64,000 nt of DNA from Candidatus Omnitrophota bacterium. GTDB lineage: Bacteria > Omnitrophota > Gorgyraeia > JAHJTE01. Below, in pieces: positions 45,801-64,000 of the stretch. The position numbers and the translations under genes are program-made. The notes beneath the pieces are model-generated. The model was not told the DNA's origin, made no database searches, and worked only from the letters and a program-made list of their open reading frames with translations. The first letter of the stretch is position 1. Every line of letters begins with the position of its first letter. The stretch is taken from NCBI GenBank assembly GCA_040753675.1, contig JBFMEB010000009.1, positions 3,407 through 67,406 of the forward strand, in the 5' to 3' direction.

Positions 45801-48800
45801 GTGGCGGCAGGACAAAGTTAGATGCACATATATTCAAACAAAGCGATATTTCATGGTTTATCTGGGAAAAGATTTGCAATTTACTTTCTCTTAATATCGC
45901 AACTTGGCTTTGTATGAAGATTATGGATTATAAGGTTAAGGTCGCACAAGAGAAACCCGTGAATTCTTCCGAAACCGCCAACAACTTTATTCAAAGGCTC
46001 TGGCAACGGATTAGGAGTCATTGTGTTATTGTAAGCTTTGGCTTGGCGATATTGTTATCAGCGCTTTACCATCTTATTCGAGGAGGGACGTTGGGAGAGC
46101 TAGCTCAAGGCTCAATCCTCGCCTTTGCCGCGACAATAGGCATCGCCACAGGGAATTTAGCACAAAGCACTTATTATGATGAGCGAAAAGTAATGAATAT
46201 TCTTGGCGGAAGGATGTGGGTAGAAAGCAGAGAGATGAGTAAGGAGCAGCAATTACAATTAGCGCGAGAAGTTCAAGAGAAAGGCAACCTGGCAGCGTAT
46301 TGGGCGCTTGTTTATTCTTTACAATGGTATGCAGAGGACTTTGCAGCCAAACATAATTCAAAGGATTTGCCTTACGATGATTGTCTCGATGTCTGCATCA
46401 GCGCTATCTATTATGTTGCCAGGATATATAACTCCACCGCAGGTGCTCGCATAGAAACATTGGCTTTCTTAAAATTTAACTCTAACTTAAGGACAGCATG
46501 GAAGGATAGACAAAAGGATATCTCTATCGGAGACTTGTTAGAGGAAATTTATAAGGATAAGGTGGGTGAAAAGAAACATCCCGATGAATCAAGTATTCTG
46601 TTGACTCGTCAGCAAGCAGAAAATTATTTAATTAGACTATTAGAACCTCTTGGATTAGATCCTTTTGGGAGAAACCAAGAGGTATTTATTTTAACAGCTA
46701 TGCATAAGGCTGGAATAATTAAGATGCCTCGCTACCAGATAGCTGCTCGCTATGGTTTAAAACCCTGCAGTATTTCAGATATATGGGAAAAAGTCAGAAC
46801 AAAATTCTTATTTTATTATAAAAGGCATGCCTTGCCGCATATTTGGGAATGTCAGATTAGTAGGAACGGAATTTCCAATAATAGCTCACTGGTGTCAAAT
46901 CAGGCTCAACATCATCATCAGCCGAATATCTGGGAATCTGAACTCGGGCCGACTGATGGGAATAGGTTTGGCAGATGGGCATTTTGGCCGGGGTCAAATT
47001 CAGATGGTAGATTGGAGATGGCAGATGGCAGTTCTCGGTTGTCGGATATGGCTGTGGATGGATTGATTGAAAAAATTGAGAAGGAATCCAAGCCGCCAAA
47101 GAGAGAAGAAGATACGAATAGCCGCAGGCGGCGATTAATAAGATTTTATGAGGCCCTGTTAGCGCTTTTAGCAAAACAAGGTATTTTTGAGGGTCAGACG
47201 CTTATCTATCCTGCTGCTGGCCTTGATATTGTTCCAGGCGCTTATGTTGATACTATAGTAATTAATCGCGATGAGTTATACAGTGCTGCTTCTGGTTTAT
47301 TTATTCGCGATTTTGAAAGATATACTAAGCGATTGAGATATGTTGCTGGAGTGTTTGCAGGAGAATATGGAGGTGAAATGGTTAATGCATTACGGGTAGA
47401 TTTATATAATAGATATATTGGCCCAATAAGAACTTCACATAAAACAGTTCTCCTGAAAGGATTTTTTGATTATGCTGCACAGATTCCCGAAGATTTCTTT
47501 GTTTATCTTGCTGAGCTTGATAGTTTTTTAAATCCAGGTGACAGAATTATATTAATGAATCTTAACGAAGCAAAGCACGTATTAAGCCATTTATTGCCTG
47601 ATAGATATAGAATAGTAGATAGTTGGTTATCCAGAGAACAAAAATCAAAATTGCAAGCTGCATTGGCAAGGATGGTTTCTAGAAGAGCAAACTATAAAAA
47701 CCAGTTCCCGAGTTATTCGAATAAAAAAGATTCATGTTGGCATTTTCTAATGCCAAATACGGTTGTTATTTTAGAGAAAGTAGGCGAGCCGGGTTTAAGA
47801 GGGCATTCTTTAGTCCAGCGACATGGGTTAGAGGGTTTAGATTTTCCTAATCCAATGGCTTCTGAATTTTCTTCTCATCGCGTTGCGAATTGGCCTGGGC
47901 CTGAAGGATGCAACGGCAATGATTACGGCACGCAGGTGCCAGGATCGTGGAGACGTTCAAATAAGCCAACAAGGAGAATTCCTGTATTTAATTGGAATAA
48001 TTGTACTATCTCTTTAGGGGCGGTGGGAATGGAGAAATTTACGTTCTTTGCTCAACCGTTCAACGAGCCAATAACGTATGAGGGACAGGTATCCAAGTCC
48101 CTTGCGAGAAGCAATTTCTTTGAGAGAGGTAATCTGGTTGGTATCCAATCGCAGAGAGATAAGTTTCTTTTTTGGCCTGACGAATTCTACCTTAACTGGT
48201 TTGAGTTCGTCCAAAAATTCAGTGATGCTATGGGTATCCCAGAATCGGCGTTCTTCTTCCAGGGATTTTCCCGACAAAGTCGGGATCCCGCTGACTTTTT
48301 TACCTCTACTGGTGCGGGAAAATTTAGGGATATGTTTAATCTTTTTCATTTTTATTTACCTCCTCGCATATCTTCGACGCCAAGTATATCTGTATATACA
48401 AAAGATGTCAAGAAAAATCTAGGAGAAGACAGGAATCGCGGCTGGGATGGCCCAGATCCAATGGCCTGCGAATTCGGACCTCATCGCGTGGCGAATTGGC
48501 CGGGATATAATTCAGTAAAGGATAAGAGTATTAAGATTTTTAGAAGCGAAGGAAGAATAATAGTCCAGGGCGAACCAGGGGCGTTTAGTGTTTTTGAAGA
48601 AATTTTAGAGTTAGACCAAGTCTGGGTTACTGGGCTTATAAAGAAGTCAATTGAAGTTAGAAATCGAGAAGATTTAGAAGATATGTACGGATATGATAGG
48701 TTGCCACAAGCTTGGATTTTAGATAAAGAAATTAATATTTGGTTTTCAGAAAATCTTTCTGAGCCGTTTATTTGTCTTAATAATAGGGCTATTGCTGTCA

Positions 48801-51550: not shown

Positions 51551-51612
51551 ATGATTACATCTGTGTTTATCTGTCGCATTTGAATCTGTGTTCATCTGTG
51601 GGAGAACTTAGT
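51551..51612. repeat. Word-repeat array: (c/t)atctgt(g/c) x4 at about 10-nt spacing
   Basis: catctgtg, tatctgtc, aatctgtg, catctgtg between the giant-ORF stop and the PilZ-ROK start. Confidence 0.6.
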
Positions 51613-51614
51613 TA

Positions 51615-52925
51615 ATGTATAGTAACTCAATGATTAACAACGAGAAAAGAAAGTTCCAGCGCATAAGCGAGACGCTGCCGGTGCGGTTTAGATTCTCGGA
51701 TAGGCAGGGCTCTGTCTGGTATGATGCAAAGACCCAAAATATCTCTGAGGGTGGTTTGTTTGTTACCAATAATTTGAGCTTAGATGAGATTGGCGATGTT
51801 GTGCATGTTGATTTGAATATTGATAATAGCTTATTGCGAATTATATGTCAGGTTGCTTGGGTAAAGAGAGAAAATGATATAGCAGCTGGCTTTGGTTTAA
51901 AAATAATCCAAATAGAGCAAAAACATAGGCAAATTTTCCTTACCTATATATATAGCAGAGTCAAGCCAAAGAGAATGCCCTGCAAGATAAAATTCTTAAG
52001 GCAGCCCATATCTAAACTGCCAGATAAAGAGCGCAGGTGTTTCCAAATCTTAGATTATATTCGTAGATTTGGTCCGGTTTCAAAGGCAGATATCTGTAAA
52101 GAAATAGATTTAAATGCTGTTAGCGTTGGCAAGTTTATTGAAGACTTTTTAAGATTAGGAATAGTATTTGACTGCGGCCTTGATTTATCCAGCGGCGGCC
52201 GCAGAGCCCAGCTATTTAGAATTAATAAAGATTTTGGGTTTATTTTAGGCATAGATGTTGATAGAGATAGCGGAAATCTCTATGCTTTAGTTGCTAATAT
52301 GGATTTAGAAATCATTATGGAAGAAACAAAACCCTTTGGGAAACAGGATGATATAAAAAATATTTTAATTAATTTCATCAATGCAATTAAATTTAAGATA
52401 GCTAATAATGGCAATAATATCTTAGGAATTGGAATCGGCCTTGGTGAATCGCACACTGACCATAGATTAGCAGATTATTTATCAGAAGCTGTTGGCCTAC
52501 CTGTTATTATTGAGGAGGGTTTTCACTTAGAGTCTTTTGCGCAGAGTTGGATTACCAGGGCATTGTCGAATAAGAATATACTTTACATACATTCCAAACA
52601 TCACTTAAGTTTAATCTTGCAAGGTGATATCTATAAACCTGAGAGAGAAATTGAGAATAAAGTTGAATTAACTCCAATAGATTTGCAGGATAAGGTATTG
52701 GCTTTATTAGAGTTGCTAGGTCCAGATATAGTTTATATTTCAAAGAAAGCTGAGAAAGAGTCCCCTCTTTTGAAACAGGCGCTTACGGAACGCTTGAAGA
52801 GAACTGATATTAGCGAAACTCAGGGTATTAAAGTGCTTAGCTCAGACGTTGACGAGAAAAATGCTATAGCTCTCGGGGCTATAAGCCTGGTGATGAAGGA
52901 GATATTTGTGGCAATCTGCGGATAG
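51615..52925 (+). CDS. PilZ-domain / ROK (NagC/XylR)-family regulator-like fusion protein
   Basis: N-terminus RKFQRISETLPV ... TQNISEGGLFV carries the PilZ RxxxR + DxSxxG motifs. A wHTH (ILDYIRRFGPVSKADICKEIDLNAVSVGKFIEDFLRLGIV) and a ROK-like sugar-kinase fold (ILGIDVD...) follow. The ROK Cys zinc motif is not evident. GGGAGA RBS lies 11 nt upstream of the ATG. Confidence 0.6.
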   Translation: MYSNSMINNEKRKFQRISETLPVRFRFSDRQGSVWYDAKTQNISEGGLFVTNNLSLDEIGDVVHVDLNIDNSLLRIICQVAWVKRENDIAAGFGLKIIQIEQKHRQIFLTYIYSRVKPKRMPCKIKFLRQPISKLPDKERRCFQILDYIRRFGPVSKADICKEIDLNAVSVGKFIEDFLRLGIVFDCGLDLSSGGRRAQLFRINKDFGFILGIDVDRDSGNLYALVANMDLEIIMEETKPFGKQDDIKNILINFINAIKFKIANNGNNILGIGIGLGESHTDHRLADYLSEAVGLPVIIEEGFHLESFAQSWITRALSNKNILYIHSKHHLSLILQGDIYKPEREIENKVELTPIDLQDKVLALLELLGPDIVYISKKAEKESPLLKQALTERLKRTDISETQGIKVLSSDVDEKNAIALGAISLVMKEIFVAICG

Positions 52926-52975
52926 GGCACAGATGATCGCTGATAATTGAACAGATGATCACAGATTGATACATA
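52926..52975. repeat. Word-repeat array, inverted orientation of the same word (cacagatgatc)
   Basis: cacagatgatcgctga...aacagatgatcacagattgat. Together with 51551-51612 it brackets the PilZ-ROK gene as inverted arrays. Confidence 0.55.
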
Positions 52976-52994
52976 GAACGAATTCTTGTATAAT
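52966..52994 (+). promoter_or_regulatory. Sigma70-like promoter for the PilZ gene pair
   Basis: -35 TTGATA (52966-71), 17-nt spacer, TG-extended -10 TGTATAAT (52987-94). About 40 nt upstream of the RBS/ATG at 53034. Confidence 0.4.
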
Positions 52995-53033
52995 GATATT
53001 TAAGATTTAACCTACGATAGCGGGGGATGGATC

Positions 53034-53414
53034 ATGGAAGATAAAAGAAGACATAGCCGTTGGCAGTTGGCAAGTAATCTTTTAGTAAGAGAATCTGGCA
53101 CAGATAGCGAAGGATTCCAGGCAAAAACGAACGATATTAGTATTGGGGGATTATGTTTTCTTTCTCCCAGGATGATTGTCCATCAGACAGAATTAGATTT
53201 TGTTATTGATTTTCCAGATGAGAAAAATTCCATCTTTGCCAAAGGCAAAGTGGTTTGGGAGAAAGAGAAGATCTTGGACGACCAACAACGGGTTATTATG
53301 ACAGGGGTTAGTTTTGATATCCTTCGCGATGCTGATAAGGAAAGAATTTTTAATTATGCCTATAAATTTTGCCGAGAGGATTTGGCAAAAAAATGGTGGC
53401 AGGGGGTGAAATAA
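53034..53414 (+). CDS. PilZ-domain protein (c-di-GMP receptor-like)
   Basis: KRRHSRWQLA and TNDISIGGLCF motifs. GGGGGA RBS. A good sigma70-like promoter lies upstream. Confidence 0.65.
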   Translation: MEDKRRHSRWQLASNLLVRESGTDSEGFQAKTNDISIGGLCFLSPRMIVHQTELDFVIDFPDEKNSIFAKGKVVWEKEKILDDQQRVIMTGVSFDILRDADKERIFNYAYKFCREDLAKKWWQGVK

Positions 53415-53415
53415 A

Positions 53416-53745
53416 ATGCAAGACGAGCGGCGCTTATTTGAGCGGTTGTCAACAAAGTTACCTGCAGTAGTCAGGGCACAGACTGATGGTTCGGTATTCG
53501 AGGCACAAATCCAGGATTTGGCAGCTAAAGGGCTTGGTATAACCAGCAGAGACAGGATTCCTCAAGAAGGCCGGGTGAATTTGAGAATAGAAATTCCTGG
53601 CCAGAAAAATTACCTCAATCTTGTCGGCCAGATTGTCTGGTCAAGAGAGAATTTTCCTGACGGCTGGCGAGCAGGAATTTGGCTAAGGGAACAGTCAACT
53701 GATTTGGTTAGTTTTTCGGTGCTTTTAGATAAGGCTAACCGCTAA
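53416..53745 (+). CDS. PilZ-domain protein
   Basis: ERRLFERLS and IQDLAAKGLGI motifs. The start sits 1 nt after the preceding stop, suggesting translational coupling. Confidence 0.6.
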   Translation: MQDERRLFERLSTKLPAVVRAQTDGSVFEAQIQDLAAKGLGITSRDRIPQEGRVNLRIEIPGQKNYLNLVGQIVWSRENFPDGWRAGIWLREQSTDLVSFSVLLDKANR

Positions 53746-53749
53746 AACG

Positions 53750-53800
53750 CAAAATCACTAATCGCAAAAACGCAAAATTATTATCTTTGCGGTTGCAAAA
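53750..53800. repeat. Word-repeat array (acgcaaaat / ttgcgg, direct + inverted)
   Basis: aacgcaaaatcactaatcgcaaaaacgcaaaattattatctttgcggttgcaaaag. Confidence 0.45.
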
Positions 53801-53804
53801 GTGC

Positions 53805-53833
53805 TTGACCCGCCTAAAGATTTATGGTAAATT
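53805..53833 (+). promoter_or_regulatory. Candidate promoter upstream of the GH94 gene
   Basis: -35 TTGACC (53805-10), 17-nt spacer, TGgTAAATT extended -10. Confidence 0.3.
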
Positions 53834-53892
53834 TTTTCTTTGCATCTCGTAATAGATAATCAATCTTAAAAGAAAATACCAAAATATTTTAA

Positions 53893-53935
53893 ATTATTTA
53901 TCAGTGATCATCTGTTCAGTTATCTGTGATCATCT
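53893..53935. repeat. Word-repeat array (atcatctgt x2) upstream of GH94
   Basis: tcagtgatcatctgttcagttatctgtgatcatctgtg. Confidence 0.5.
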
Positions 53936-53965
53936 GTGCTAAAAAGAAAGGAGCAAGTTAAAAAT

Positions 53966-56407
53966 ATGAAGTACGGCCACTTTAGTAAAGACAACACAGA
54001 GTTTATCATCACTGACCCGCTAACACCCCGTCCCTGGATTAATTATTTGACTAACGAAGAATATGGTTCAGTTATTTCTCACTGCGCCGGCGGATATAGT
54101 TTTTTTAAAGACTGCCGCTCTGACAGAGTCCTACGCTGGCTTCCGGAAAATTGGCAAACAGACAGGCCAGGGCGATATATTTATGTTAAGCAGAAAGCAG
54201 AAAGCAGAAAGCAGAAAGCAAAAGTTTGGTCCTTGACTTACCAGCCGGTGAGAGAAAAATTAGATTTTTATGAAGCAAGGCATGGATTAGGTTATACACA
54301 AATCAAAACAAAATATAACGGGACTTCTTCCGATATTACTTATTTTGTCCCTGTCCATGACCATTGTGAAATCTGGTTAGTAAATATCAAAAACGAAACT
54401 AAGCAAACCAAACATTTAGAACTCTTTCCTTATTGCGAATGGCTTTTAGGAGATTATCATTTGGAACTACGCTATCGCAATATTCTGAATTTATATAATC
54501 GTGTCTGGTTTGATAAGCAGCACTCTGCGATTTTTGCCAAAAAGACGGCTAGTTGGGGAGATATGGACATCCAGCCATTTGCCTATCTGGCATTTTTTGC
54601 TTCATCATTAAAAGTAGACGGCTATGTAACTCAAAAATATCCTTTCTTAGGCAGGCATAATACCTGTGAACGTCCGCAAATGATATTCGAAGATAATTTT
54701 AAAAATATTGATTTCTGTTCCGGAGAAGATGCAATAGGTTGCTTTAGGCATAAACTCACTTTAGCCCCCGGAAAAAATAAAGAATTTGTAATCATCTTAG
54801 GTCAGACCGAGGGCCAAACCACTGTTTCAAAATTGCTTACTAAATACCGCAATTTAAAAAATTCAAAGAAGGAATTAGCAGCGGTAAAATCCTTGTGGCG
54901 GATGAGGATTTTAGATAATATCTGGATACAGACTGCGGATAAAGACTTTGATTTTATGATGAATATCTGGGTTAAGTATCAGCTTTATATTTGTAATTTA
55001 TGGAGCCGCTCGCCGAGTTACTACCATGAAGGTAGTGGAGGAAGAGGCTACCGGGATTCTTGCCAGGATTCAGAAAGCCTTTGTTCGATAAATAGCGAGT
55101 TTACCCGTAAGCGCATATTGCATATTGCCTCTTTAATCCGCAAAGACGGCACTTCTGCTCCGGGTTGGGGCGATACTACTGGGCCGGCAGGCCATAGGCC
55201 GAATAAAGACCATCAGATTTGGCTTACCGCAACAGTGCATGCCTACATTAGGGAGACAGGCGATAAATCTATACTTAGCGAATATGTGCCATATTTGAAA
55301 GATAGATGGATTGGCGGATGGGAAGTAGATGTAAATTATAAAGGCGGGGCTACCACCGACGGAGAAGGAACGCTTTTAGAGCACTTAGAAAAGAATTTAA
55401 ATTTCTGCTTTAATGACGTTGGCGAGAGGGGTTTTCCCTTAATTGGCCATGCGGATTGGAATGATGCTATTGATGCAGCAGGCAAAGAGCACAAAGGCGA
55501 TAGCGTCTGGTTGGCGCAGGCTTTGGTAAGAAGTTTGCGGCTTTTTGCCGACATCTGCGAGCTTATCGGTGAGAAAGGCAAAAAAGAAGAGTTCTTGCAT
55601 AAAGCAAAGACAATGAGCGAGCGGATAAACGATGTTGGCTGGGACGGTGCCTGGTATAAGCGGGGCTTTACTGATGATGGCACAGTTTACGGCAGTAAAG
55701 TAAATAATGAAGGAAAAATTTTTATCAATACCCAGGCCTGGGCGCTTTTATCCGGGGTGAGCGATGACGGCGGTAAAACCAAACAGGTTGTTGATTCGAC
55801 AATGAAATATTTAGACGGCAAGCACGGTTTTGCTTTATTCTACCCCGCCTACAGTAAATTTAATCCTAAACTCGGACGTATCAGTATGTTTTCCGAAGGC
55901 ACAAAAGAAAATGCAGCAGTGTTTTGCCACGCTGCAACATTTATGATTGTTGCATTATTATCAGAAGGCTTTGGAAATATTGGCTATCAGTCAATGCGAA
56001 AACTTATGCCAAATTTACAGCAAGATTATGAATTATATAAGACTGAGCCATATGTCTGGTCTGAATATATTGTGGGGCCCCAGCATCCTTACCTATATGG
56101 AGAAGGAGCGTTTACCTGGATTACTGGCACAGCTGGATGGACTTTTATGGCAGCAACTGAGTGGCTGTTAGGCGCGCGCAGAGATTTTGATGGCTTAAGA
56201 ATAGACCCTTGTATTCCCAGTCACTGGAAACATTGCCGTATTAGAAGGCCTTTTCGAGGAGCAATATACGATATTGAGATTGAGAATCCAAGAGGAAAAC
56301 AAAAAGGCGTAAGCGCTGTTTATGTTAACGGCGAGTTGATAGACGGGAATTTAATAAAACCAGGACAAGCTGGAAAGACTTATAAAGTTAGAGTGGTGAT
56401 GGGATGA
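53966..56407 (+). CDS. GH94 glycoside phosphorylase (cellobiose/cellodextrin/beta-1,2-glucan phosphorylase-like)
   Basis: N-terminus KYGHFSKDNTEFIITDPLTPRPWINYL is typical of GH94. GHADWNDAIDAAG carries the catalytic DWND motif. About 810 aa. The ATG at 53966 has an AAAGGAG RBS; the track's GTG at 53936 is an alternative start. An in-frame heptamer tandem lies at 54191-54218. Confidence 0.75.
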   Translation: MKYGHFSKDNTEFIITDPLTPRPWINYLTNEEYGSVISHCAGGYSFFKDCRSDRVLRWLPENWQTDRPGRYIYVKQKAESRKQKAKVWSLTYQPVREKLDFYEARHGLGYTQIKTKYNGTSSDITYFVPVHDHCEIWLVNIKNETKQTKHLELFPYCEWLLGDYHLELRYRNILNLYNRVWFDKQHSAIFAKKTASWGDMDIQPFAYLAFFASSLKVDGYVTQKYPFLGRHNTCERPQMIFEDNFKNIDFCSGEDAIGCFRHKLTLAPGKNKEFVIILGQTEGQTTVSKLLTKYRNLKNSKKELAAVKSLWRMRILDNIWIQTADKDFDFMMNIWVKYQLYICNLWSRSPSYYHEGSGGRGYRDSCQDSESLCSINSEFTRKRILHIASLIRKDGTSAPGWGDTTGPAGHRPNKDHQIWLTATVHAYIRETGDKSILSEYVPYLKDRWIGGWEVDVNYKGGATTDGEGTLLEHLEKNLNFCFNDVGERGFPLIGHADWNDAIDAAGKEHKGDSVWLAQALVRSLRLFADICELIGEKGKKEEFLHKAKTMSERINDVGWDGAWYKRGFTDDGTVYGSKVNNEGKIFINTQAWALLSGVSDDGGKTKQVVDSTMKYLDGKHGFALFYPAYSKFNPKLGRISMFSEGTKENAAVFCHAATFMIVALLSEGFGNIGYQSMRKLMPNLQQDYELYKTEPYVWSEYIVGPQHPYLYGEGAFTWITGTAGWTFMAATEWLLGARRDFDGLRIDPCIPSHWKHCRIRRPFRGAIYDIEIENPRGKQKGVSAVYVNGELIDGNLIKPGQAGKTYKVRVVMG

Positions 56408-56914
56408 CCTTATAGAACTTATCTATAATTAAACCCTAAATTCAAAACTCTAAACTCTAAATAAACTCAAATGTCCAAAACCCCAAATTCAAAACCATAT
56501 GATTTAGGAGCCAGGACCCTTAAATTTGCTAAAAGAGTAAGGGATTATGTAAAAGCTTTACCAAAGACATTGGCTAACATAGAAGATGCTAAGCAGCTTA
56601 TTAAAGCTTCTGGTTCAGTTGGTGCCAATTATATAGAAGCTGAAGAGGCTTTGAGTAAAAAAGATTTTATAATGAGAATAAAAATTTCAAGAAAAGAGGC
56701 AAAAGAAAGCAGATACTGGTTAGAATTAACCGAGCACAGAGAAGATCAGAAGAGTGAGCAGGAGGCTTTAATTAATGAAGCGGTAGAATTAACAAAAATT
56801 TTTGGTTCAATAGTTGAACGATCCAAATAATTCTTTTGAGTTTTAGATTTTGCGTTTTGTATTTGTTTAGGATTTAGGTTTAGGATTTAGAGTTTATATT
56901 TAAAAAGAATAGAT
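56408..56914. mobile_element. Inverted-repeat-bounded cassette carrying the four-helix-bundle gene (IVS/MITE-like)
   Basis: The left arm 56415-56470 (aaaccctaaattcaaaactctaaactctaaat...) is nearly the reverse complement of the right arm 56845-56900 (...atttaggtttaggatttagagttta). A miniature ORF-less copy lies at 60297-60480. Confidence 0.5.
56471..56830 (+). CDS. Four-helix-bundle protein (23S rRNA intervening-sequence protein family, TIGR02436/PF05635-like)
   Basis: DLGARTLKFAKRVRDYVKALPKT ... GSVGANYIEAEEALSKKDFIMRIKISRKEAKESRYWLELT matches the family pattern (..IGANIAEG...S.KDF..KL.IA.KEA.ET.YWL.L). Flanked by long inverted repeats. Confidence 0.7.
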   Translation: MSKTPNSKPYDLGARTLKFAKRVRDYVKALPKTLANIEDAKQLIKASGSVGANYIEAEEALSKKDFIMRIKISRKEAKESRYWLELTEHREDQKSEQEALINEAVELTKIFGSIVERSK

Positions 56915-58210
56915 ATGAAGAGATTGTCTACATTGTTTATTATTGTTTGTTTTTCATTGAGTCTTATTGGCTGTGTTGCAGAAGATAGTGCTTCAGCCAA
57001 AAAAACCATAACCGTTTGGCATTGGATGACTGACCGGGAGGCGGCCTTTCAAGAATTAGCTAAACGCTACGAAGATGATACCGGCATAAAGGTTAATTTT
57101 GAACTCTATGCCCCTTCTGATATCTATAGCCAAAAGGTGCGCGCTGCTGCTCAAGGGATAACCTTGCCAGATATATATGGGCTTCTGGGCGAAAAGAGAG
57201 ATTTTGCCGCATTTATAAAAAGTGGCCACGTAGCAGATTTAAGTGAGCCAATGTTTGAGGAAAATGGCGCTTGGAAAGAAAGTTTCTTTTCTAAAGCTCT
57301 CGAGGTGGTGGAATTCAAGGAGAATAATGCCTATGGCATAAAGCCAGGCATCTATGGTGCTCCCATTGATATAATGAACATCCAGATGCTTTACAATAAA
57401 AAATTATTTAAAAGGGGAGGCCTTGACCCAGAGAGGCCACCCTTAAACTGGAAGGAATTTATTGAGGATATCGAAAGCCTAAAAAAAGTGGGCGCGCCGG
57501 GTTTGGTTTCAGGGTGGGGAGAGATTTGGATGATTGATTGCTTTGCCTCCAATTATGCATTTAATATTATGGGGGAAGATAAGGTTATCGCTACTTTAAA
57601 AGGAGAGGTACCTTATACGGATCCGGATTGGATTAAGGTCTTTTCATTATTTAAAGAACTGGCAGATAAAGATGCCTTAGCATCCGGCGTTGTGATAATG
57701 AAAAACAAAGTCGCTGAGCAGACTTTTGCTAATGAAAGAGCGGCATTTGCATTTAATGGTTCATGGTGTATTAATGTTTATGAGGGGATGAATCCTAATT
57801 TAGAGTATGCTCCATTTTTACCGCCAAAAGTAAATATGAAAAAACCTATGTATATTTGGGGAGGAGGCTCTTCATTCTCATTTCTGGTAAATGATAGATC
57901 TACTAAGAAATTAGAGGCAATAAAGTTTTTAAAGTGGTTAACCGATAAAGACCAACAGGCATATTTATCGAATGAAACTAAGAACTTACCTTCCAACAAA
58001 TTTGCGCTTGCCCAAATACCTAAGATTTTGGCTCAGTTTGCAGCGGGTATGGATAACACTACTCATCCTAGCATTTGGCCAGTGAGTGAGTCTTCGATTG
58101 TGATTGAGGCAATGGGTAAAGGCATTCAGTCAATATTGATTGGAGAAAAGACTCCTCAAGAGTTAGGAGAAGAATTGCAGGCTTTAAAAGAGAAAGAGTT
58201 ATTTAAGTAG
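56915..58210 (+). CDS. ABC transporter extracellular sugar-binding lipoprotein (family 1 SBP)
   Basis: Signal peptide with lipobox LIGC. The body is SBP-like (TITVWHWMTDREAAFQELAKRYEDDTGIKVNFE...). Confidence 0.7.
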   Translation: MKRLSTLFIIVCFSLSLIGCVAEDSASAKKTITVWHWMTDREAAFQELAKRYEDDTGIKVNFELYAPSDIYSQKVRAAAQGITLPDIYGLLGEKRDFAAFIKSGHVADLSEPMFEENGAWKESFFSKALEVVEFKENNAYGIKPGIYGAPIDIMNIQMLYNKKLFKRGGLDPERPPLNWKEFIEDIESLKKVGAPGLVSGWGEIWMIDCFASNYAFNIMGEDKVIATLKGEVPYTDPDWIKVFSLFKELADKDALASGVVIMKNKVAEQTFANERAAFAFNGSWCINVYEGMNPNLEYAPFLPPKVNMKKPMYIWGGGSSFSFLVNDRSTKKLEAIKFLKWLTDKDQQAYLSNETKNLPSNKFALAQIPKILAQFAAGMDNTTHPSIWPVSESSIVIEAMGKGIQSILIGEKTPQELGEELQALKEKELFK

Positions 58211-58227
58211 TTTCTAGTTAGTTCTGA

Positions 58228-58345
58228 AAAAATATTTTTTAACGCAGATATACGCAAATCTAACGCAGATTTTCGCAGATTTCTCTACTAAATATCTGCG
58301 ACCATTTGCGTTACATCGGCGAGAATCTGCGTTCAAGAAAAGGTT
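58228..58345. repeat. Imperfect palindromic word array (cgcagat x4 then atctgcg / tttgcgtta)
   Basis: taacgcagatatacgcaaatctaacgcagattttcgcagatttc ... atatctgcgaccatttgcgttacatcggcgagaatctgcgtt, between the SBP gene and the first permease. Confidence 0.55.
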
Positions 58346-58373
58346 TTTTAGAAATCTCTTCTAAATTAGACGC

Positions 58374-59405
58374 TTGATGATATTTAAAAATATCTATGTA
58401 AAATCAATCATAGTTACCTCCTGTATCATTTTAGCAGAATTAATTTATCAAAAATTCCACAACCTCAGATTCATATCTCCTCTGTTAATATTATTGGCAG
58501 TCTTGATTTCTATTATCCTCGTCATTAAAATTATTTCAGCAAGACAATTCAAAAGTTTTCTTTTTATAGTTCCTGCCTTAGCAATTTTTTCAATATTTTA
58601 TATTTATCCTTTTATAAAAGTTTTACAACTGGCTCACTACAGCTGGGATGGAATATTACCTACAATGAAATTCGTGGCCTTTTATAACTTTTTAGAGGTC
58701 TTAAAAGATAAAGTCTGGTGGCAGTCGATGTTCAACGCCGGTTACATTACCTTTATCGCATTGACCTTCCAGAATGCCCTGGCTTTGATTTTGGCATTAG
58801 CCTGCGATAGGCAAATGAAGGCAGGGAATTTCTACCGCGTTATATTTTTTATACCTCCGGTATTGTCAGAGGTCGTGGTGGGTCTGGTATGGCAGTGGCT
58901 GTACAACGCAGATTACGGTCTGTTAAACCACTGGCTTTACACAATAGGTTTCCCTAATCTTGCCAGGTCTTGGCTGTCTGATCCAAAGACCGCTCTTACC
59001 TGCGTGGCTATCGTGCATTCCTGGAAAGGTTTTGGCTGGGGATTTGTAATTCTCTTGGCTGGATTACAAACTATACCCCGCCAGCTTTATGAAGCTGCAC
59101 GTGTTGACGGAGCGAATACTTGGCAGGTATTTAAAAATATTACCGCGCCTTTGATGATACCCGTATTCGTGCTGGTGGCGATACTGACAGTGCTAGGTTC
59201 TATGCAGTCGTTTGTTTTAATACTTACTATGACAGACGGCGGGCCGGCATTTCATACCGAGGTGCCGGTAACCAGAATTCTAACTTCTATGATCGGCTCT
59301 TCTAGATTTGGGTATGCTTGTTCACAGAGTATAGTATTCGGTGCAATCCTCCTTGCGATTTCCTTTATACAGAAGAGGCTCTCCCAAAATATGAGGCAGG
59401 CATAA
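58374..59405 (+). CDS. Carbohydrate ABC transporter permease (MalF/UgpA-like)
   Basis: Six TM helices. EAA loop YEAARVDGANTWQVFKNITAPLM. Confidence 0.7.
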   Translation: MMIFKNIYVKSIIVTSCIILAELIYQKFHNLRFISPLLILLAVLISIILVIKIISARQFKSFLFIVPALAIFSIFYIYPFIKVLQLAHYSWDGILPTMKFVAFYNFLEVLKDKVWWQSMFNAGYITFIALTFQNALALILALACDRQMKAGNFYRVIFFIPPVLSEVVVGLVWQWLYNADYGLLNHWLYTIGFPNLARSWLSDPKTALTCVAIVHSWKGFGWGFVILLAGLQTIPRQLYEAARVDGANTWQVFKNITAPLMIPVFVLVAILTVLGSMQSFVLILTMTDGGPAFHTEVPVTRILTSMIGSSRFGYACSQSIVFGAILLAISFIQKRLSQNMRQA

Positions 59406-60244
59406 TGCTTAATTTTAGCGTAAAGAAAACAACTACAAACATCCTAGTTCATCTTTTATTGATTTCAGTGTCGATTACCTGTCTTTTCCCGCTATTGTGG
59501 ATGTTTGGTTCTTCTTTAAAGACTCAAGGCACGGTTTTTTCTGACTTGAGCATAATTCCTCAACATCCGCATTTCGAGAATTATATAAAAGCCTGGACTG
59601 ACGGGGGTTTCGGCAGGTATTTCTTTAATAGTTTAATATACACCATCGCTGTAGTGTTAGGTATAGTTTTGGTATCGTCGCTGGCCGCATTTGCGTTTTC
59701 GCGATTGGAATTTCCTGGAAGAAACGCATTTTTTATCATGTTTCTTGCCGCGATGATGATACCGCTGCCGGGCAGTTTTGTTCCTTTATATGTGCTTATG
59801 GTGAAACTTCATTTGGTCAATACGCGCTTAGGCTATTGTTTATGCCTTATTAACGTGGGGCTGTCTTTTAGCATATTTTTGCTTAAGACGTATTTTGATA
59901 AGATGCCTAAAGAGTTAGAGGATGCCGCGAGAATTGACGGTTGCAACAGATTGGGAATTTATAGACACGTGGCTCTGCCCTTTGCCAGGCCGGCTCTTGC
60001 AGTGGTAGTGGTTTTTAACGCCCTGAATGTTTGGAACGAATATGTGCTGGCTTTGATAATATTTAGTAGTAAAGACCTGATGCCTCTTCAACGTGGGTTG
60101 ATGATGTTTCGGGGAGAATTCCTGACTAATTACCCACTTTTGATGGCAGGGCTTACTATAGCGGCCTTACCTATAATTATCTTATACCTGTTGATGCAGA
60201 AGTATATTGTCAAGGGAGCAACTTCTCAGGTGGTATTTCCATAA
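59405..60244 (+). CDS. Carbohydrate ABC transporter permease (MalG/UgpE-like)
   Basis: The start ATG overlaps the upstream stop (TAATG). EAA loop LEDAARIDGCNRLGIYRHVALPFARPAL. The track start at 59318 is an upstream in-frame extension overlapping the previous gene. Confidence 0.7.
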   Translation: MLNFSVKKTTTNILVHLLLISVSITCLFPLLWMFGSSLKTQGTVFSDLSIIPQHPHFENYIKAWTDGGFGRYFFNSLIYTIAVVLGIVLVSSLAAFAFSRLEFPGRNAFFIMFLAAMMIPLPGSFVPLYVLMVKLHLVNTRLGYCLCLINVGLSFSIFLLKTYFDKMPKELEDAARIDGCNRLGIYRHVALPFARPALAVVVVFNALNVWNEYVLALIIFSSKDLMPLQRGLMMFRGEFLTNYPLLMAGLTIAALPIIILYLLMQKYIVKGATSQVVFP

Positions 60245-60296
60245 TGCCTTATCAAATAAATAAGGGTTTAATTCAAAAATTAAAGTGCAAAAATCT

Positions 60297-60480
60297 ATTA
60301 CATAAATTTATATAAACTCTAAACACTAAATTCTAAATCCTAAATAAATCCAAAATTCAAAACATAAAACTCAAAACCTCATTTGACCTCTCAGGCATAA
60401 AATGTCTTCATACGCTTTTGGATTTTAGGTTTTGGACATTTGAGTTTGTTTAGAGTTTAGGGTTTCGGATTTAGGGTTTC
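60297..60480. repeat. Miniature ORF-less inverted copy of the four-helix-bundle cassette (both IR arms + 5' gene remnant)
   Basis: 60297-60350 matches the reverse complement of the cassette's right arm. 60425-60480 matches the reverse complement of its left arm. The middle retains the reverse complement of tcaaATGtccaaaacc, i.e. the MSKT start of the gene, then a stop. Confidence 0.55.
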
Positions 60481-60589
60481 TAATTTTTACATTTTACATT
60501 GTCATTTTGATATTTAATTTTTGATATTTGCATTTATAAACCAAATGCAATTGTCATTTAGTTGACAAGGCACCATAAGAAAGGTATTT

Positions 60590-60622
60590 AATCTTGCTTA
60601 CGCCAAGATTAATTGTTATAAT
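60590..60622 (+). promoter_or_regulatory. Candidate promoter + palindromic operator upstream of the MFS gene
   Basis: -35 TTGCTT (60594-99), 17-nt spacer, extended -10 TGtTATAAT (60614-22). The palindrome aatcttgcttacgccaagatt (60590-60610) overlaps the -35. A second TTGACA lies at 60562. Confidence 0.35.
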
Positions 60623-60664
60623 TACCATATTTATCACTAATTCAATTACAAGAATGGAGATCAA

Positions 60665-62191
60665 ATGACGACACACCATGTCACCGCCCCCCAAGACCGC
60701 ATTCCTTTTTTTCAGAAATTCATATACAGTATAGGAGCATTTGCGAATACTGCCCAGGCAGCTTTTATCGGACAGATGGTCATTGTTTTAAACCTGGGGT
60801 TAGGCGTAAATCCCGCCTTAGTGGGTTTAGTCGGAGCCCTACCCCGTATTATTGACGCCATATCTGATCCTATAACTGGATACTTTTCTGATAATCTACG
60901 GACCCGTTGGGGACGCCGAAGGCCGCTTATATTCTTTGGCGCTGTTACCGGCGGAATTACTTACGCATTGATGTATCAGCTCTATAAGGGCCATAGCGAA
61001 GGTTTCTATGTCTGGTATTTCGGAATATTCCAGGCCCTTTATTTTATTGGGTTTACCTGTTTTTCCATTCCCTGGATAGCGCTGGGATACGAAATGACCC
61101 CTGATTATCATGAGCGCACACGCTTGCAGGGGGCTAGTAATTTTGTTGGCCAATTACCCTGGCTTATCGCTCCTTGGTGCTGGGCCATTATGCACAACCA
61201 GAACTGGTTCCCAGATATAGTTTACGGCGGAAGAGTTCTTGCTATCATTATCGGCAGTGTTATCATCGGTTGTGGTATCCTTCCTGCTATTTTTAATAAA
61301 GAATACTTCCACACCTTACCAAAACCTGATGTTAGGGGCGCTTGGAGCGTGACGAAAGACTTCTTTGCTGGGGGTTTCGTAACTCTTAAATGTAGGCCAT
61401 TCTTGAAGCTGTGCCTATTTACCTTACTGATCTTTGGCGGATTCATGTGCGCTTCAGCTTTTACCATCTACGTTGTTTTCTTCTATGTCTTTGGAAATGC
61501 TCCAGTGCTTGATCAAGCCTATGCAAACGGCGGTCGCCTGCTCGGTATCTATGGGACTTTTTCTGCTATTTGTACTATGGGAGTCATTTATTTAACCACA
61601 TGGCTATCTAGAAGGCTCGGCAAGAGAAATACATTTTTTATAACTCTGCCTCTTTCAATCATCGGTTACGCTTTGAAGTGGATTGGTTATAATCCTGCGC
61701 ATCCGTACTTACTTTTGGTCGCCGCTCCGTTCATCTCATTCGGTCTGGGATCACTTTTCACATTAGTCAGCTCCATGGTAGCTGATGTATGTGACCTTGA
61801 TGAACTTACTACCGAAACACGCAGAGAAGGCATGTTTGGTGCTATTTACTGGTGGATGGTAAAATTAGGAGTCGCGCTTTCATCGTTTATCTCCGGAATT
61901 CTACTGAATGCAACTGGTTTCAAAGTTACATTAGGGCTTGCTCAAACAACGCAAACATTATTAAATTTGCGGCTGTGCGATATCGGTATCCCGATTGTGA
62001 CCACTTTAATCGCCATTTTTGTTATTATGACTTTTGATATCACAGAAGCTAAAGCCTGTGAAATCCGTGTCCATGTAGAGCGCAGAAGAGGAGAAAGACG
62101 AGTAGAAGAAGAAAGACGCAGAGAAGAAAGACGAGTAGAAGAAGAAAGACGAGTAGAAGAAGAAAGACGAGAAGAAGAAAGACGGGAGTGA
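60665..62191 (+). CDS. MFS transporter, glycoside-pentoside-hexuronide (GPH):cation symporter family
   Basis: GYFSDNLRTRWGRRRPLIFFGAV is the GPH DRT..RWGRRRP signature. 12 TM helices. GGAGA RBS. The C-terminal ERRVEEERR low-complexity tail is encoded by an 18-nt tandem repeat at about 62090-62188, so the functional C-terminus is uncertain. Confidence 0.7.
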   Translation: MTTHHVTAPQDRIPFFQKFIYSIGAFANTAQAAFIGQMVIVLNLGLGVNPALVGLVGALPRIIDAISDPITGYFSDNLRTRWGRRRPLIFFGAVTGGITYALMYQLYKGHSEGFYVWYFGIFQALYFIGFTCFSIPWIALGYEMTPDYHERTRLQGASNFVGQLPWLIAPWCWAIMHNQNWFPDIVYGGRVLAIIIGSVIIGCGILPAIFNKEYFHTLPKPDVRGAWSVTKDFFAGGFVTLKCRPFLKLCLFTLLIFGGFMCASAFTIYVVFFYVFGNAPVLDQAYANGGRLLGIYGTFSAICTMGVIYLTTWLSRRLGKRNTFFITLPLSIIGYALKWIGYNPAHPYLLLVAAPFISFGLGSLFTLVSSMVADVCDLDELTTETRREGMFGAIYWWMVKLGVALSSFISGILLNATGFKVTLGLAQTTQTLLNLRLCDIGIPIVTTLIAIFVIMTFDITEAKACEIRVHVERRRGERRVEEERRREERRVEEERRVEEERREEERRE

Positions 62192-62198
62192 TAGTAGG

Positions 62199-64000
62199 AT
62201 GAAAATTCGTAGATACTCGATACTCGATACTCGATACTCGATAATTTATTTGCTAACGTTTTTTTTGCTAGCATCTAGCATCTGGCATCTAGCATCGAGC
62301 CATGCAGAAGTTCTTCCATCCACTGAATACGTGCGAAATGCCTGGGATGCGTCAAGTAAAAAGGACCTTGAGTCGTTGGAAAAGATCGTGAACACCTGTA
62401 TTGAAAACTATTCGGAAGAAGCATTAGAGCAGCAAGCCAGTTTGCATGCCCTTGCTACGAAAGATAAGGCACAAGATTATCCAGCTCTAAATGATGTAGC
62501 AACATGCTATTTTATTCGCGGCGAGGCAAATTTTAAAGCCGGCAAGTTAAAAGAAGCAAAAGTCGACCTTAAAGAAGTAATTGATAATTATCATTATGCT
62601 CAAGCTTGGGATCCGCGGGGTTGGTTCTGGTCAGTAGCCGAGAAGAGTCAAGCGATTCTTGATAAAATTAAAGTGATGGAAGAAGGAGAACTTACCCCTG
62701 GAAATTTAGAGACAAGACCACTTGAAAGACCCGCAACAAAATTGACACTTTATGATTCTGGAAAAGAATCAGTCGTAAATTATGAAAAATACGGAAAGTT
62801 TATTGGCAGGGGCAGCAAAGATTATAAATATGAAATTACTGACCAGGAAGGCCTGGTCCAGGCAGTGGGAGAAGGCATTTATCCGAATACTACGAGCGTG
62901 CGCTGGGATCCTAATTTCAGGAAGGCGATGAAGGCAGGCAGATTAGAAGGCAGTCATTGGGATTTTGTGTACACTCCTGATTTAGAAGCAAACTTTTATA
63001 AATGGGCCACGGCCAGTGAACCCGAAGGAGTAAAACTTTTTTATATCGGGCTGGCTTTAGAGCGGGCTGGCTTCATCGAGCATGCCATAAAAGCCTATTA
63101 TGCCATTGTGGTACATTTTCCTGCGAGTTACGGCTGGACTTATTGGCAGACGCCTTGGTATGTAGGACCAGCAGCAATTGGCAAGATAAAGTATTTGACT
63201 TTCCGGTATCCGAAGTTGGGTATAAAACTTGAAGGGGCAAAGGTGAGGATAATTAATGCCTTTGATAAGAATATTAGTAATGACCTGGTTATTGCTGACC
63301 CTGGCAAATTGGTTAAAAAAACTATGTTAGATAAGGTTAGTCTAGCGCAGACTAGCGAGAAGATTAAGGTAAAGGTGGTAAAGAAAATCGGGGGGACACG
63401 GATAAAGCTCGTTCAGTTCGATAATCGCCATTGGCGGCTCTACGTAAACTCTAAACCCTATATAATTAAAGGTATATCCTATGCGCCTACAAAGGTGGGT
63501 CAGAGTCCGGATGACGGGTCGCTCTCCAACTGGATGGATTATGATTATAACCATAATGGTCTCTGCGACGGACCATTTGATTCCTTTATAGATAAAAATT
63601 TGAATAATAAACAGGATAAGGATGAATTTCCTATCGGAGATTTTCAGTTGATGAAGAATATGGGCGTTAATACCATTAGAGTTTATCATCAGCCTTTTAC
63701 CTTTACGAAGGCCAACAAAAAACTCTTAAGGAAACTTTACGATGATTTTGGAATTATGGTGATTATGGGCGATTTTTTAGGTAAATATGCCATTGGTTCA
63801 GGAGCGAGTTGGTACGAAGGCACGGACTATGAGAATCCCGAACATCAAAAGAATATGTTAGATTCAGTTATTAAGATGGTGAATGAATTTAAAGATGAGC
63901 CCTATATTCTGATGTGGTTATTGGGTAATGAAAATGTTTACGGAATTGCGTGTAACGCCGATAAAAAGCCGCAGGCCTTCTTCGCGTTTTGCGATAAAGT
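62199..64000 (+). CDS. Secreted glycoside hydrolase, clan GH-A TIM-barrel (GH5/GH2-like), 3'-partial
   Basis: Open frame from ATG 62199 to the window end; the track omits it for lack of a stop. N-terminus MKIRRYSILDTRYSIIYLLTFFLLASSIWHLASSHA|EV is a signal peptide with an AxA site. The C-terminal region GVNTIRVYHQPF ... ILMWLLGNENVYG carries the GH-A NE(P) acid/base motif. Confidence 0.55.
   Translation, partial: MKIRRYSILDTRYSIIYLLTFFLLASSIWHLASSHAEVLPSTEYVRNAWDASSKKDLESLEKIVNTCIENYSEEALEQQASLHALATKDKAQDYPALNDVATCYFIRGEANFKAGKLKEAKVDLKEVIDNYHYAQAWDPRGWFWSVAEKSQAILDKIKVMEEGELTPGNLETRPLERPATKLTLYDSGKESVVNYEKYGKFIGRGSKDYKYEITDQEGLVQAVGEGIYPNTTSVRWDPNFRKAMKAGRLEGSHWDFVYTPDLEANFYKWATASEPEGVKLFYIGLALERAGFIEHAIKAYYAIVVHFPASYGWTYWQTPWYVGPAAIGKIKYLTFRYPKLGIKLEGAKVRIINAFDKNISNDLVIADPGKLVKKTMLDKVSLAQTSEKIKVKVVKKIGGTRIKLVQFDNRHWRLYVNSKPYIIKGISYAPTKVGQSPDDGSLSNWMDYDYNHNGLCDGPFDSFIDKNLNNKQDKDEFPIGDFQLMKNMGVNTIRVYHQPFTFTKANKKLLRKLYDDFGIMVIMGDFLGKYAIGSGASWYEGTDYENPEHQKNMLDSVIKMVNEFKDEPYILMWLLGNENVYGIACNADKKPQAFFAFCDK
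62205..62300. repeat. Word arrays gatactc x4 and agcatctag x3-4 (overlap the 5' end of the secreted GH gene)
   Basis: gatactcgatactcgatactcgatactcg ... tagcatctagcatctggcatctagcatcgagc. They encode the signal peptide ...LLASSIWHLASSHA. Confidence 0.6.

Follow-up and report, generated by a model that had tools for sequence, protein, structure and literature searches.

A gene-less hairpin in an Omnitrophota transporter operon, probably a dead antisense copy of an IVS-type four-helix-bundle cassette

Between two transporter genes of a Candidatus Omnitrophota bacterium lies a long imperfect hairpin of ~170 bases, at positions 60314-60481 of the window (the whole 64,000-nucleotide stretch of DNA analyzed here). 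It holds no gene, and an intact, gene-bearing cassette of the same family (56431-56897) lies ~3.4 kb upstream in the opposite orientation. For this locus, the question is where such a hairpin came from and whether the operon makes use of it at the RNA level. The initial annotation regarded the hairpin, hereafter the mini, as an ORF-less derivative of the cassette and argued that the cassette is, or was, mobile or that its hairpin is retained for a function at the RNA level. Here, we conclude that an IVS-type four-helix-bundle hairpin cassette inserted in this lineage and that the mini is probably a dead copy of this type, antisense and without its gene.

The mini and its gene-bearing relatives

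The intact cassette is encoded on the plus strand, and its arms pair in the predicted fold. Its sole gene is an ORF of 119 aa at 56471-56830, which is placed in sense between the GH94 and solute-binding-protein genes. A Pfam search identified the product as a member of PF05635 (23S rRNA intervening-sequence protein; E = 3e-14), and the protein also matched TIGR02436 (four helix bundle protein; E = 3e-20). The nearest solved structure was 2RLD, an uncharacterized protein. No transposase domain was found in this gene, which encodes the four-helix-bundle protein only. The flanks of the ORF pair over the whole spacer, with the start codon inside the 5' arm.

Relatives of this protein are numerous. 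At least 8,000 were found at E <= 1e-5, of which the best 120 were 76-84% identical and bore the names Omnitrophota, Thermodesulfobacteriota, and Deltaproteobacteria. When a single genome of each species was scanned, 484 relatives were confirmed, and the best 80 of these were 58-81% identical and came from at least 15 phyla, including many Patescibacteria, Planctomycetota, Chloroflexota, Bacteroidota, Nitrospirota, and Verrucomicrobiota. An exact-protein look-up gave no match to the window's own IVP protein, and the exact 20-mer AAACTCAAATGTCCAAAACC, which spans the start codon, had no match in the genome collection. No relative was found among viral contigs; plasmids gave distant family members only (<48% identical), and these searches revealed no vector for spread.

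Both arms of the cassette were recovered at the mini in an inverted-repeat search. Positions 60408-60479 pair with cassette positions 56431-56502 (72 nt, 88%, inverted), and positions 60333-60376 pair with 56834-56877 (44 nt, 86%, inverted). Thus, when 60297-60480 is set against 56408-56914, the arms match as the initial annotation had proposed, in opposite orientation. The 5' (left) arm of the mini, at 60408-60481 on the minus strand, is made of the heptamers AAACCCT, AAATCCG, and AAACTCT, followed by the core AAACAAACTCAA, the ATG, and the first codons. A left-arm profile that had been built without the mini matched its minus strand at E = 5e-9. The 3' (right) arm, at 60314-60377 on the same strand, reads TTTTGAG...GGATTTATTTAGGATTTAG...GTTTAGAGTTTATAT and pairs with the left arm in the predicted fold. 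Arrays of period 7 were located at 60313-60377 and 60448-60486.

Between the arms, little of the gene is left. The minus strand at 60404-60439 encodes 12 codons, MSKT*NPKAYED, in frame with the family N-terminus MSKTQNSKPYDL. The ATG lies at 60439-60437, and a premature TAA at 60427-60425 interrupts the frame at codon 5. These codons are joined to a remnant of the last ~8 codons and the stop region, ~26 nt in all (60378-60403, minus strand), which forms the apical loop of the hairpin. In a multiple alignment with intact cassettes, the mini showed a clean internal deletion of ~290 nt of the ORF, and no ORF of at least 20 aa was found inside the hairpin. Because the mini does not encode the PF05635/TIGR02436 protein, it is a derivative rather than a full member of the IVS-type cassettes.

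The arms are low in complexity, and raw arm identity therefore overstates specificity; shuffled arms still aligned at 0.53-0.68 matches per base. A chance likeness of AT-rich simple sequence was considered, with heptamer microsatellites arising independently at both sites. Several unrelated heptamer repeats do occur in the window, some of them inside a giant ORF, which would suit this account. Nevertheless, it is highly improbable. The 20-mer AAACTCAAATGTCCAAAACC is exactly common to the mini and the cassette, and a search that allowed up to 3 mismatches found it at those two sites of the window only, where 0.02 were expected. The profile match speaks against chance as well. Above all, chance likeness is refuted by the retained coding remnants, since the mini still has the ATG with 12 in-frame codons as well as the ORF's 3' end, in the right order and orientation. 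The resemblance is accordingly not of the generic AT-rich kind.

The mini is nevertheless no copy of its neighbor. Its arms scored 101 against the window's own cassette and 103, 103, and 101 against cassettes of a Syntrophaceae, a deltaproteobacterial, and another Omnitrophota MAG, respectively. The two elements belong to the same family, and the description of the mini as a derivative applies to the cassette type represented by 56408-56914, not to that particular copy. Within the 64-kb window, one mini and one intact copy were present.

Insertion into the transporter operon

The mini is flanked upstream by an ABC transporter permease gene (59318-60244, plus strand; Pfam BPD_transp_1) and downstream by an MFS/GPH sugar transporter gene (60665-62191, plus strand; Pfam MFS_2). 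For comparison, four related Omnitrophota contigs (L106-L109) were used, in which the MFS protein is 88-91% identical. The gene order of these relatives is that of the window: three PilZ genes, GH94, the solute-binding protein, two permeases, MFS, and GH2. The spacers differ. From GH94 to the binding-protein gene, the window has 507 nt, including the cassette, versus 27, 101, and 12 nt in the relatives; from the permease to the MFS gene, it has 420 nt, including the mini, versus 23, 91, 148, and 90 nt. No trace of the cassette was seen in three of three syntenic relatives, and none of the mini in four of four. Since the syntenic relatives are without both, the cassette and the mini are lineage-specific insertions, and these empty sites bear out the earlier suggestion that the cassette type is, or was, mobile.

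The mini is part of a larger lineage-specific block of ~330 nt (60245-60576), which was delimited by comparing the permease-to-MFS spacer with the four syntenic relatives and which extends from the permease stop codon to just before the spacer sequence that the relatives have in common. At the edges of this block, an outer terminal inverted repeat was read from the sequence, with TGCCTTATCAA on the left (60245-60255, plus strand) and TTGACAAGGCA on the right (60562-60572, plus strand). In a centroid fold of the whole spacer, these 11-bp repeats pair with each other, and the IVP-type hairpin is nested inside. Downstream of and outside the insertion, and upstream of the MFS gene, lies a putative promoter-like element at 60594-60622 (plus strand; TTGCTT, 17 nt, TGTTATAAT), which is conserved in three relatives.

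When the ends of the arms and of the ~330-nt block were compared with the empty sites, no direct repeat was evident, with the flanks AT-rich and the empty sites diverged. The two ends of the element can be told apart, as one carries AATTA-AAACCCTAAAT and the other GTTTAGAGTTTATAT. In the mini, these signatures are inverted along with the interior, which makes insertion of a whole element in the opposite orientation the better fit. An in-place flip by recombination between the arms fits worse for the same reason.

Other repeats were seen in the window and in its relatives. A giant ORF at 353-51550 (plus strand) runs uninterrupted for 17,065 aa and is presumably one of the giant genes reported for Omnitrophota. 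In the 3,000 aa at either end, an AcrB C-terminal segment and a GFO/IDH/MocA domain were identified, together with weak matches to phosphorylase, EamA, and nucleotidyltransferase domains, and LysM and YkuD L,D-transpeptidase domains are located at the C-terminus. Inside this ORF, heptamers are repeated in frame at 23973-24124, 27273-27360, 39148-39229, and 47001-47031, with the units CTAGCAT/CCAGCAT, TAGCTCA, ACCAACT, and CAGATGG; a 74-nt block is also repeated 3.3 kb apart at 85% identity. No hairpin fold was obtained for the heptamer repeats of the giant ORF (z about 0 to -1).

The CTAGCAT unit of the giant ORF also forms one arm of a spacer hairpin at 62268-62300. It belongs to a repeat just after the MFS gene (62198-62300), composed of (GATACTC)4, a spacer, and (CTAGCAT)4, which is absent from the relatives. 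The minus-strand RNA of this repeat folds at -36.3 (z = -5.0) and the plus strand at -20.9 (z = -0.2); only the minus strand folds strongly, because every mismatch is G-U there. In the spacer between the binding-protein and permease genes, a very stable hairpin of ACGCAGAT-type units (58227-58347; -50.6 kcal/mol, z = -9.3) occupies a site where the relatives lack it, and the same hairpin family occurs upstream of GH94 in L108 (~2190-2300). In addition, a 45-nt inverted repeat of ACAGATGATC-type units (52927-52971 and 53895-53939; 87%) encloses two small PilZ-domain ORFs (53034-53414 and 53416-53745), a cassette-like layout with a different cargo. The relatives keep the PilZ genes, and other hairpins occupy the PilZ spacers. 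The heptamer hairpins of this operon differ among the four relatives, each having a set of its own in different spacers, and two gene models in L109 start with (AAGTCAC)4, which points to fast repeat turnover in this clade.

Arms, orientation, and gene-less copies across the family

The same design was found in nearly all of ~80 loci from at least 15 phyla: heptamer arms, a core of the form AAACAAATTCAA-ATG-ACCGAAATTCAAAATTCAAAAC, and a complementary 3' arm. The stem encloses the gene, and the start codon lies within the heptamer-repeat inverted-repeat stem. The tandem heptamers 5' of the gene include AAATCCG, AAATCCT, AAACCCT, AAATAAC, and others. The 3' flank is complementary to heptamers and core, with scores above those of shuffled controls in most loci, and left and right arms agree in their heptamer class (chi-square p = 7e-6). 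When matched and mismatched arms were compared, an element's own right arm was its best partner in 5 of 69 cases and among the top five in 17 of 69, a weak signal. As all arms consist of much the same low-complexity sequence, those of one element pair with each other only modestly better than with the arms of other elements. When 70 arm pairs were aligned with MAFFT, the alignment was too gappy and RNAalifold gave no consensus structure. A distant member, 37% identical, was seen at 1398-1900 of L114, on plasmid pNFSY05 of the cultured cyanobacterium Nostoc flagelliforme CCNUN1, where it lies between the two copies of a perfect inverted repeat of 31 nt, built of (ATTCAAA)4. This repeat indicates that the heptamer-arm design reaches well beyond the window's subfamily, into a culturable host.

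Conservation of the arms was evaluated in eight cassettes of the window's subfamily, drawn from Omnitrophota, Syntrophaceae, and other deltaproteobacterial-type MAGs. The arms were ~86% identical, compared with 84-86% at codon positions 1 and 2 and 36% at fourfold-degenerate sites. Matches per base amounted to 0.84 for the left arm and 0.71 for the right, versus low-complexity baselines of 0.54-0.68 and 0.53-0.59, respectively. Since both values exceed the baseline, arm sequence appears to be under purifying selection in intact cassettes. Some arms carry runs of CCCTAAA/TTTAGGG, which is the plant-type telomere repeat; such runs were seen at 56431-56461 and 60448-60481 of the window and in L016-L025, with up to six tandem copies in L018. 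Screens for contamination or telomeres could wrongly flag bacterial contigs with (CCCTAAA)n arms.

A hairpin that remains in an operon spacer might be kept for work at the RNA level, as an RNase III site or as a 3'-end stabilizer that separates the ABC-transporter and MFS transcripts. The position of the mini would suit such a role, directly after a stop codon and upstream of the conserved promoter-like element. On the plus strand, which is that of the operon, it folds into one ~60-bp imperfect hairpin (-46.9 kcal/mol, z = -5.5), with 54 Watson-Crick and 7 G-U pairs over 73 aligned positions, and the minus strand folds less well (-39.3, z = -3.3). Relics that keep both arms (~27) outnumber those with one (~6) across genomes, and RNase III cleaves long stems of this kind in rRNA IVSs (PMC4990558). 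However, the hairpin is absent in four of four relatives with the same operon. In the sense strand of 72 cassettes, G-U and A-C mismatches were equal (196 versus 193), and the corresponding numbers for the mini, 7 versus 4, did not differ significantly. In one groundwater population, the left arm holds 4, 5, or 6 heptamer copies and the right arm is constant, so the heptamer number shifts in one arm alone, which also counts against a selected RNA structure. No Rfam family matched; a search of 51500-64000 at E up to 1 gave no hit, including none to rRNA. An intrinsic terminator was considered and rejected, as the ~60-bp stem is A/U-rich rather than G+C-rich, there is no U-tract, and a terminator scan was negative. 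Absence from relatives, lack of terminator features, and the missing G-U excess all weigh against the proposal that the hairpin was retained as a terminator or processing site. A selected RNA function at this site is unlikely.

The orientation of other copies bears on why the mini lost its gene. Gene-less copies were counted with an nhmmer profile of the 5' arm over 1.29 Mb of related loci, in place of a blastn self-hit hairpin scan that was too strict and missed the window's own cassette. The census gave 83 matches at intact genes and 26 distinct ORF-less hairpins. Relative to their two neighbor genes, intact cassettes were same/same in 64 cases, same/opposite in 10, opposite/same in 7, and opposite/opposite in none. 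Between co-directional genes, with orientation called by a simple longest-ORF rule and some loci chosen via the 20-mer that defines the subfamily, intact cassettes were 64 sense to 0 antisense and ORF-less hairpins 12 to 8 (Fisher p = 3e-6). Confidently oriented minis alone gave 9 sense to 6 antisense (p = 2e-5). The simplest reading is that elements enter either way and that the gene is kept only where host transcription reads it. The window's mini is one of the antisense minis.

We propose the following course of events. An intact member, with a gene for a ~120-aa four-helix-bundle protein (PF05635/TIGR02436, S23p/IVP) inside heptamer-built terminal inverted repeats of 50-70 nt, would have inserted behind the permease stop codon, in the short spacer there, and antisense to the operon. 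Intact cassettes apparently lack a promoter of their own and seem to survive in sense orientation only, so the antisense copy could presumably not be expressed. This unexpressed copy would then have gained a stop at codon 5 and lost the ~290-nt interior of its ORF, with the whole stem left behind. The operon RNA of the mini is predicted to form the ~60-bp imperfect hairpin, which RNase III would likely cut if it behaves as rRNA IVSs do, and the mini itself is probably inert or nearly so. Against this explanation stands the fact that no insertion mechanism is known, with neither a transposase nor a target-site duplication in evidence.

Because the whole ~330-nt block is absent from the relatives, the hairpin may also have arrived ORF-less. 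In a MITE-like course, an ORF-less lineage with a single deletion origin would have been moved by the cassette protein or by host functions and would have reached this spacer already gene-less. We regard this as possible, if somewhat doubtful. ORF-less hairpins are indeed frequent and lie in both orientations. The window mini and those in L005 and L008 retain the first ~12-17 and the last ~8-10 codons of the ORF, and their deletion boundaries agree within a few bases; microhomology was not enriched at the shared boundaries (4.62 versus 4.56 nt) and does not explain the recurrence. The window mini and L005 have the same CAA-to-TAA stop as well. For these three minis from different sources with nearly the same boundaries, spread of an ORF-less lineage fits as well as independent decay, in which the common boundaries would mean that what survives is the full stem with its loop removed. 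The minis in L009 and L012 are eroded further.

Spread would also agree with L075, a single 19-kb locus with 5-6 minis whose pairwise identity is 73-89% and whose arm signature is that of the intact cassette residing there. In a metagenome scan, the exact 20-mer retrieved 10 hairpins and zero intact cassettes, and the unrelated ORF-less ACGCAGAT hairpin family likewise sits at different sites in the window and in L108. On the other hand, minis are no closer to one another than to intact cassettes, and their junctions differ in detail. Neither near-identical copies nor a target-site duplication were found, the encoded protein is no known transposase, and the sample of five minis was itself ascertained through the shared 20-mer. 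The probable reading is still that of a dead antisense copy of an IVS-type cassette.

Relics of other kinds were also observed. In L103 (19676-19731), a solo 5' arm has its ATG core joined to a P-type ATPase-like N-terminus; in L073 (7024-7091), a solo 5' arm with 17 IVP codons is followed by a GTPase-like gene. Relic arms may thus become 5' leaders of unrelated genes. In L052, L063, L071, L089, and L093, gene-less hairpins directly adjoin an intact cassette in tandem, which points to insertion next to or inside a copy already present, or to local duplication.

Known elements and meaning for the family

The closest counterparts of the cassette are the ORF-containing 23S rRNA IVSs of Leptospira, Coxiella burnetii, Brucella, and the Xanthomonas-type S23p elements, which also have a PF05635 protein in the loop. 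In C. burnetii, the 23S rRNA IVS is a 428-nt selfish element with the S23p ORF in its loop and a 28-bp stem of terminal inverted repeats that is cut by RNase III (PMC4990558). Tandem heptamers precede its ATG and vary in number between strains, and the ORF is under reductive evolution (PMC4990558). Like the cassettes, rRNA IVSs have a long terminal-inverted-repeat stem, heptamers right before the ATG in varying copy number (between Coxiella strains, and from 4 to 6 in one cassette population), a poor or absent ribosome-binding site, and an ORF prone to reductive evolution, and they are regarded as selfish and horizontally acquired (PMC4990558). Unlike them, the mini resides in an mRNA operon spacer and not in helix 25 or 45 of 23S rRNA. 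At ~60 bp, its stem exceeds theirs in length and is less perfect, RNase III excision would apply only by analogy, and it is without an ORF and antisense to host transcription.

ORF-less 23S rRNA IVSs of ~100-150 nt are present in Salmonella, Yersinia, and Campylobacter. They resemble the mini as short, extended, gene-less hairpins of similar size that vary between close relatives. They lie in rRNA helices, and we know of no demonstrated descent from an S23p-bearing element; in the mini, by contrast, descent from an ORF-bearing cassette is visible in the kept codons. MITEs are another parallel, as they are small, ORF-less, and intergenic, have terminal inverted repeats, derive from internal deletion, occur in either orientation, and reach multiple copies in some genomes, like the minis in L075. 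The mini differs from them in that its parent has no recognizable transposase, its inverted repeats are 60-70 nt of heptamers instead of short defined ends, and the copies in L075 are 73-89% identical instead of near-identical.

Heptamers of the STRR type are known from cyanobacteria. Intergenic direct repeats of TAACTGA-type heptamers have been reported for Beggiatoaceae, Cyanobacteria, and Bacteroidetes (PMC4679880). Both kinds are similar to the cassettes in their 7-nt tandem units in spacers, which often end just before a start codon, and in their patchy distribution across phyla with suspected horizontal spread and no known mechanism. However, descriptions of them mention direct repeats that have neither a partner arm nor cargo, whereas the heptamers of the cassettes form a complementary pair of arms that encloses a gene or what is left of it.

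Avd is a pentameric, nucleic-acid-binding four-helix bundle. This accessory protein of diversity-generating retroelements falls under the same Pfam family, PF05635 (PMC10053308). In the vicinity of the cassette and the mini, with Pfam run on the ORFs from 51.6 kb onward, no reverse transcriptase, template repeat, or variable repeat was seen. Family members have been located between cas genes (PMC3936711), and the S23p/four-helix-bundle protein is still termed functionally uncharacterized (PMC11270868, PMC4990558). Our literature search found no description of non-rRNA cassettes or of their gene-less derivatives.

In the widest view, S23p/IVP cassettes could be pan-bacterial, transposase-less mobile elements of operon spacers and rRNA helices, which would ride on host transcription and be kept via their heptamer stem. 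The encoded Avd-like protein would act on the stem or on RNase III products for persistence or spread, and gene-less hairpins would be non-autonomous, MITE-like offspring. We offer this picture as speculation and consider it, taken as a whole, unlikely to hold.

The nature of rRNA IVSs and of S23p/four-helix-bundle proteins has been an open matter since the 1990s, and the IVS as a mobile element is still a hypothesis. The locus described here and its relatives provide direct insertion polymorphisms of an IVS-type element in ordinary operons. They also reveal a rule, in that intact copies lie in sense orientation only and gene-less copies lie both ways, and arms that are as strongly conserved as the protein. 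For the family, this means insertion into operon spacers by no mechanism yet known, and ORF-less derivatives that are frequent. In Omnitrophota and candidate-phyla genomes, such hairpins explain some over-long spacers and, likely, assembly breaks. The nature of IVS-type elements is now testable in sequence data and in cultured hosts, such as that of the Nostoc flagelliforme plasmid member.
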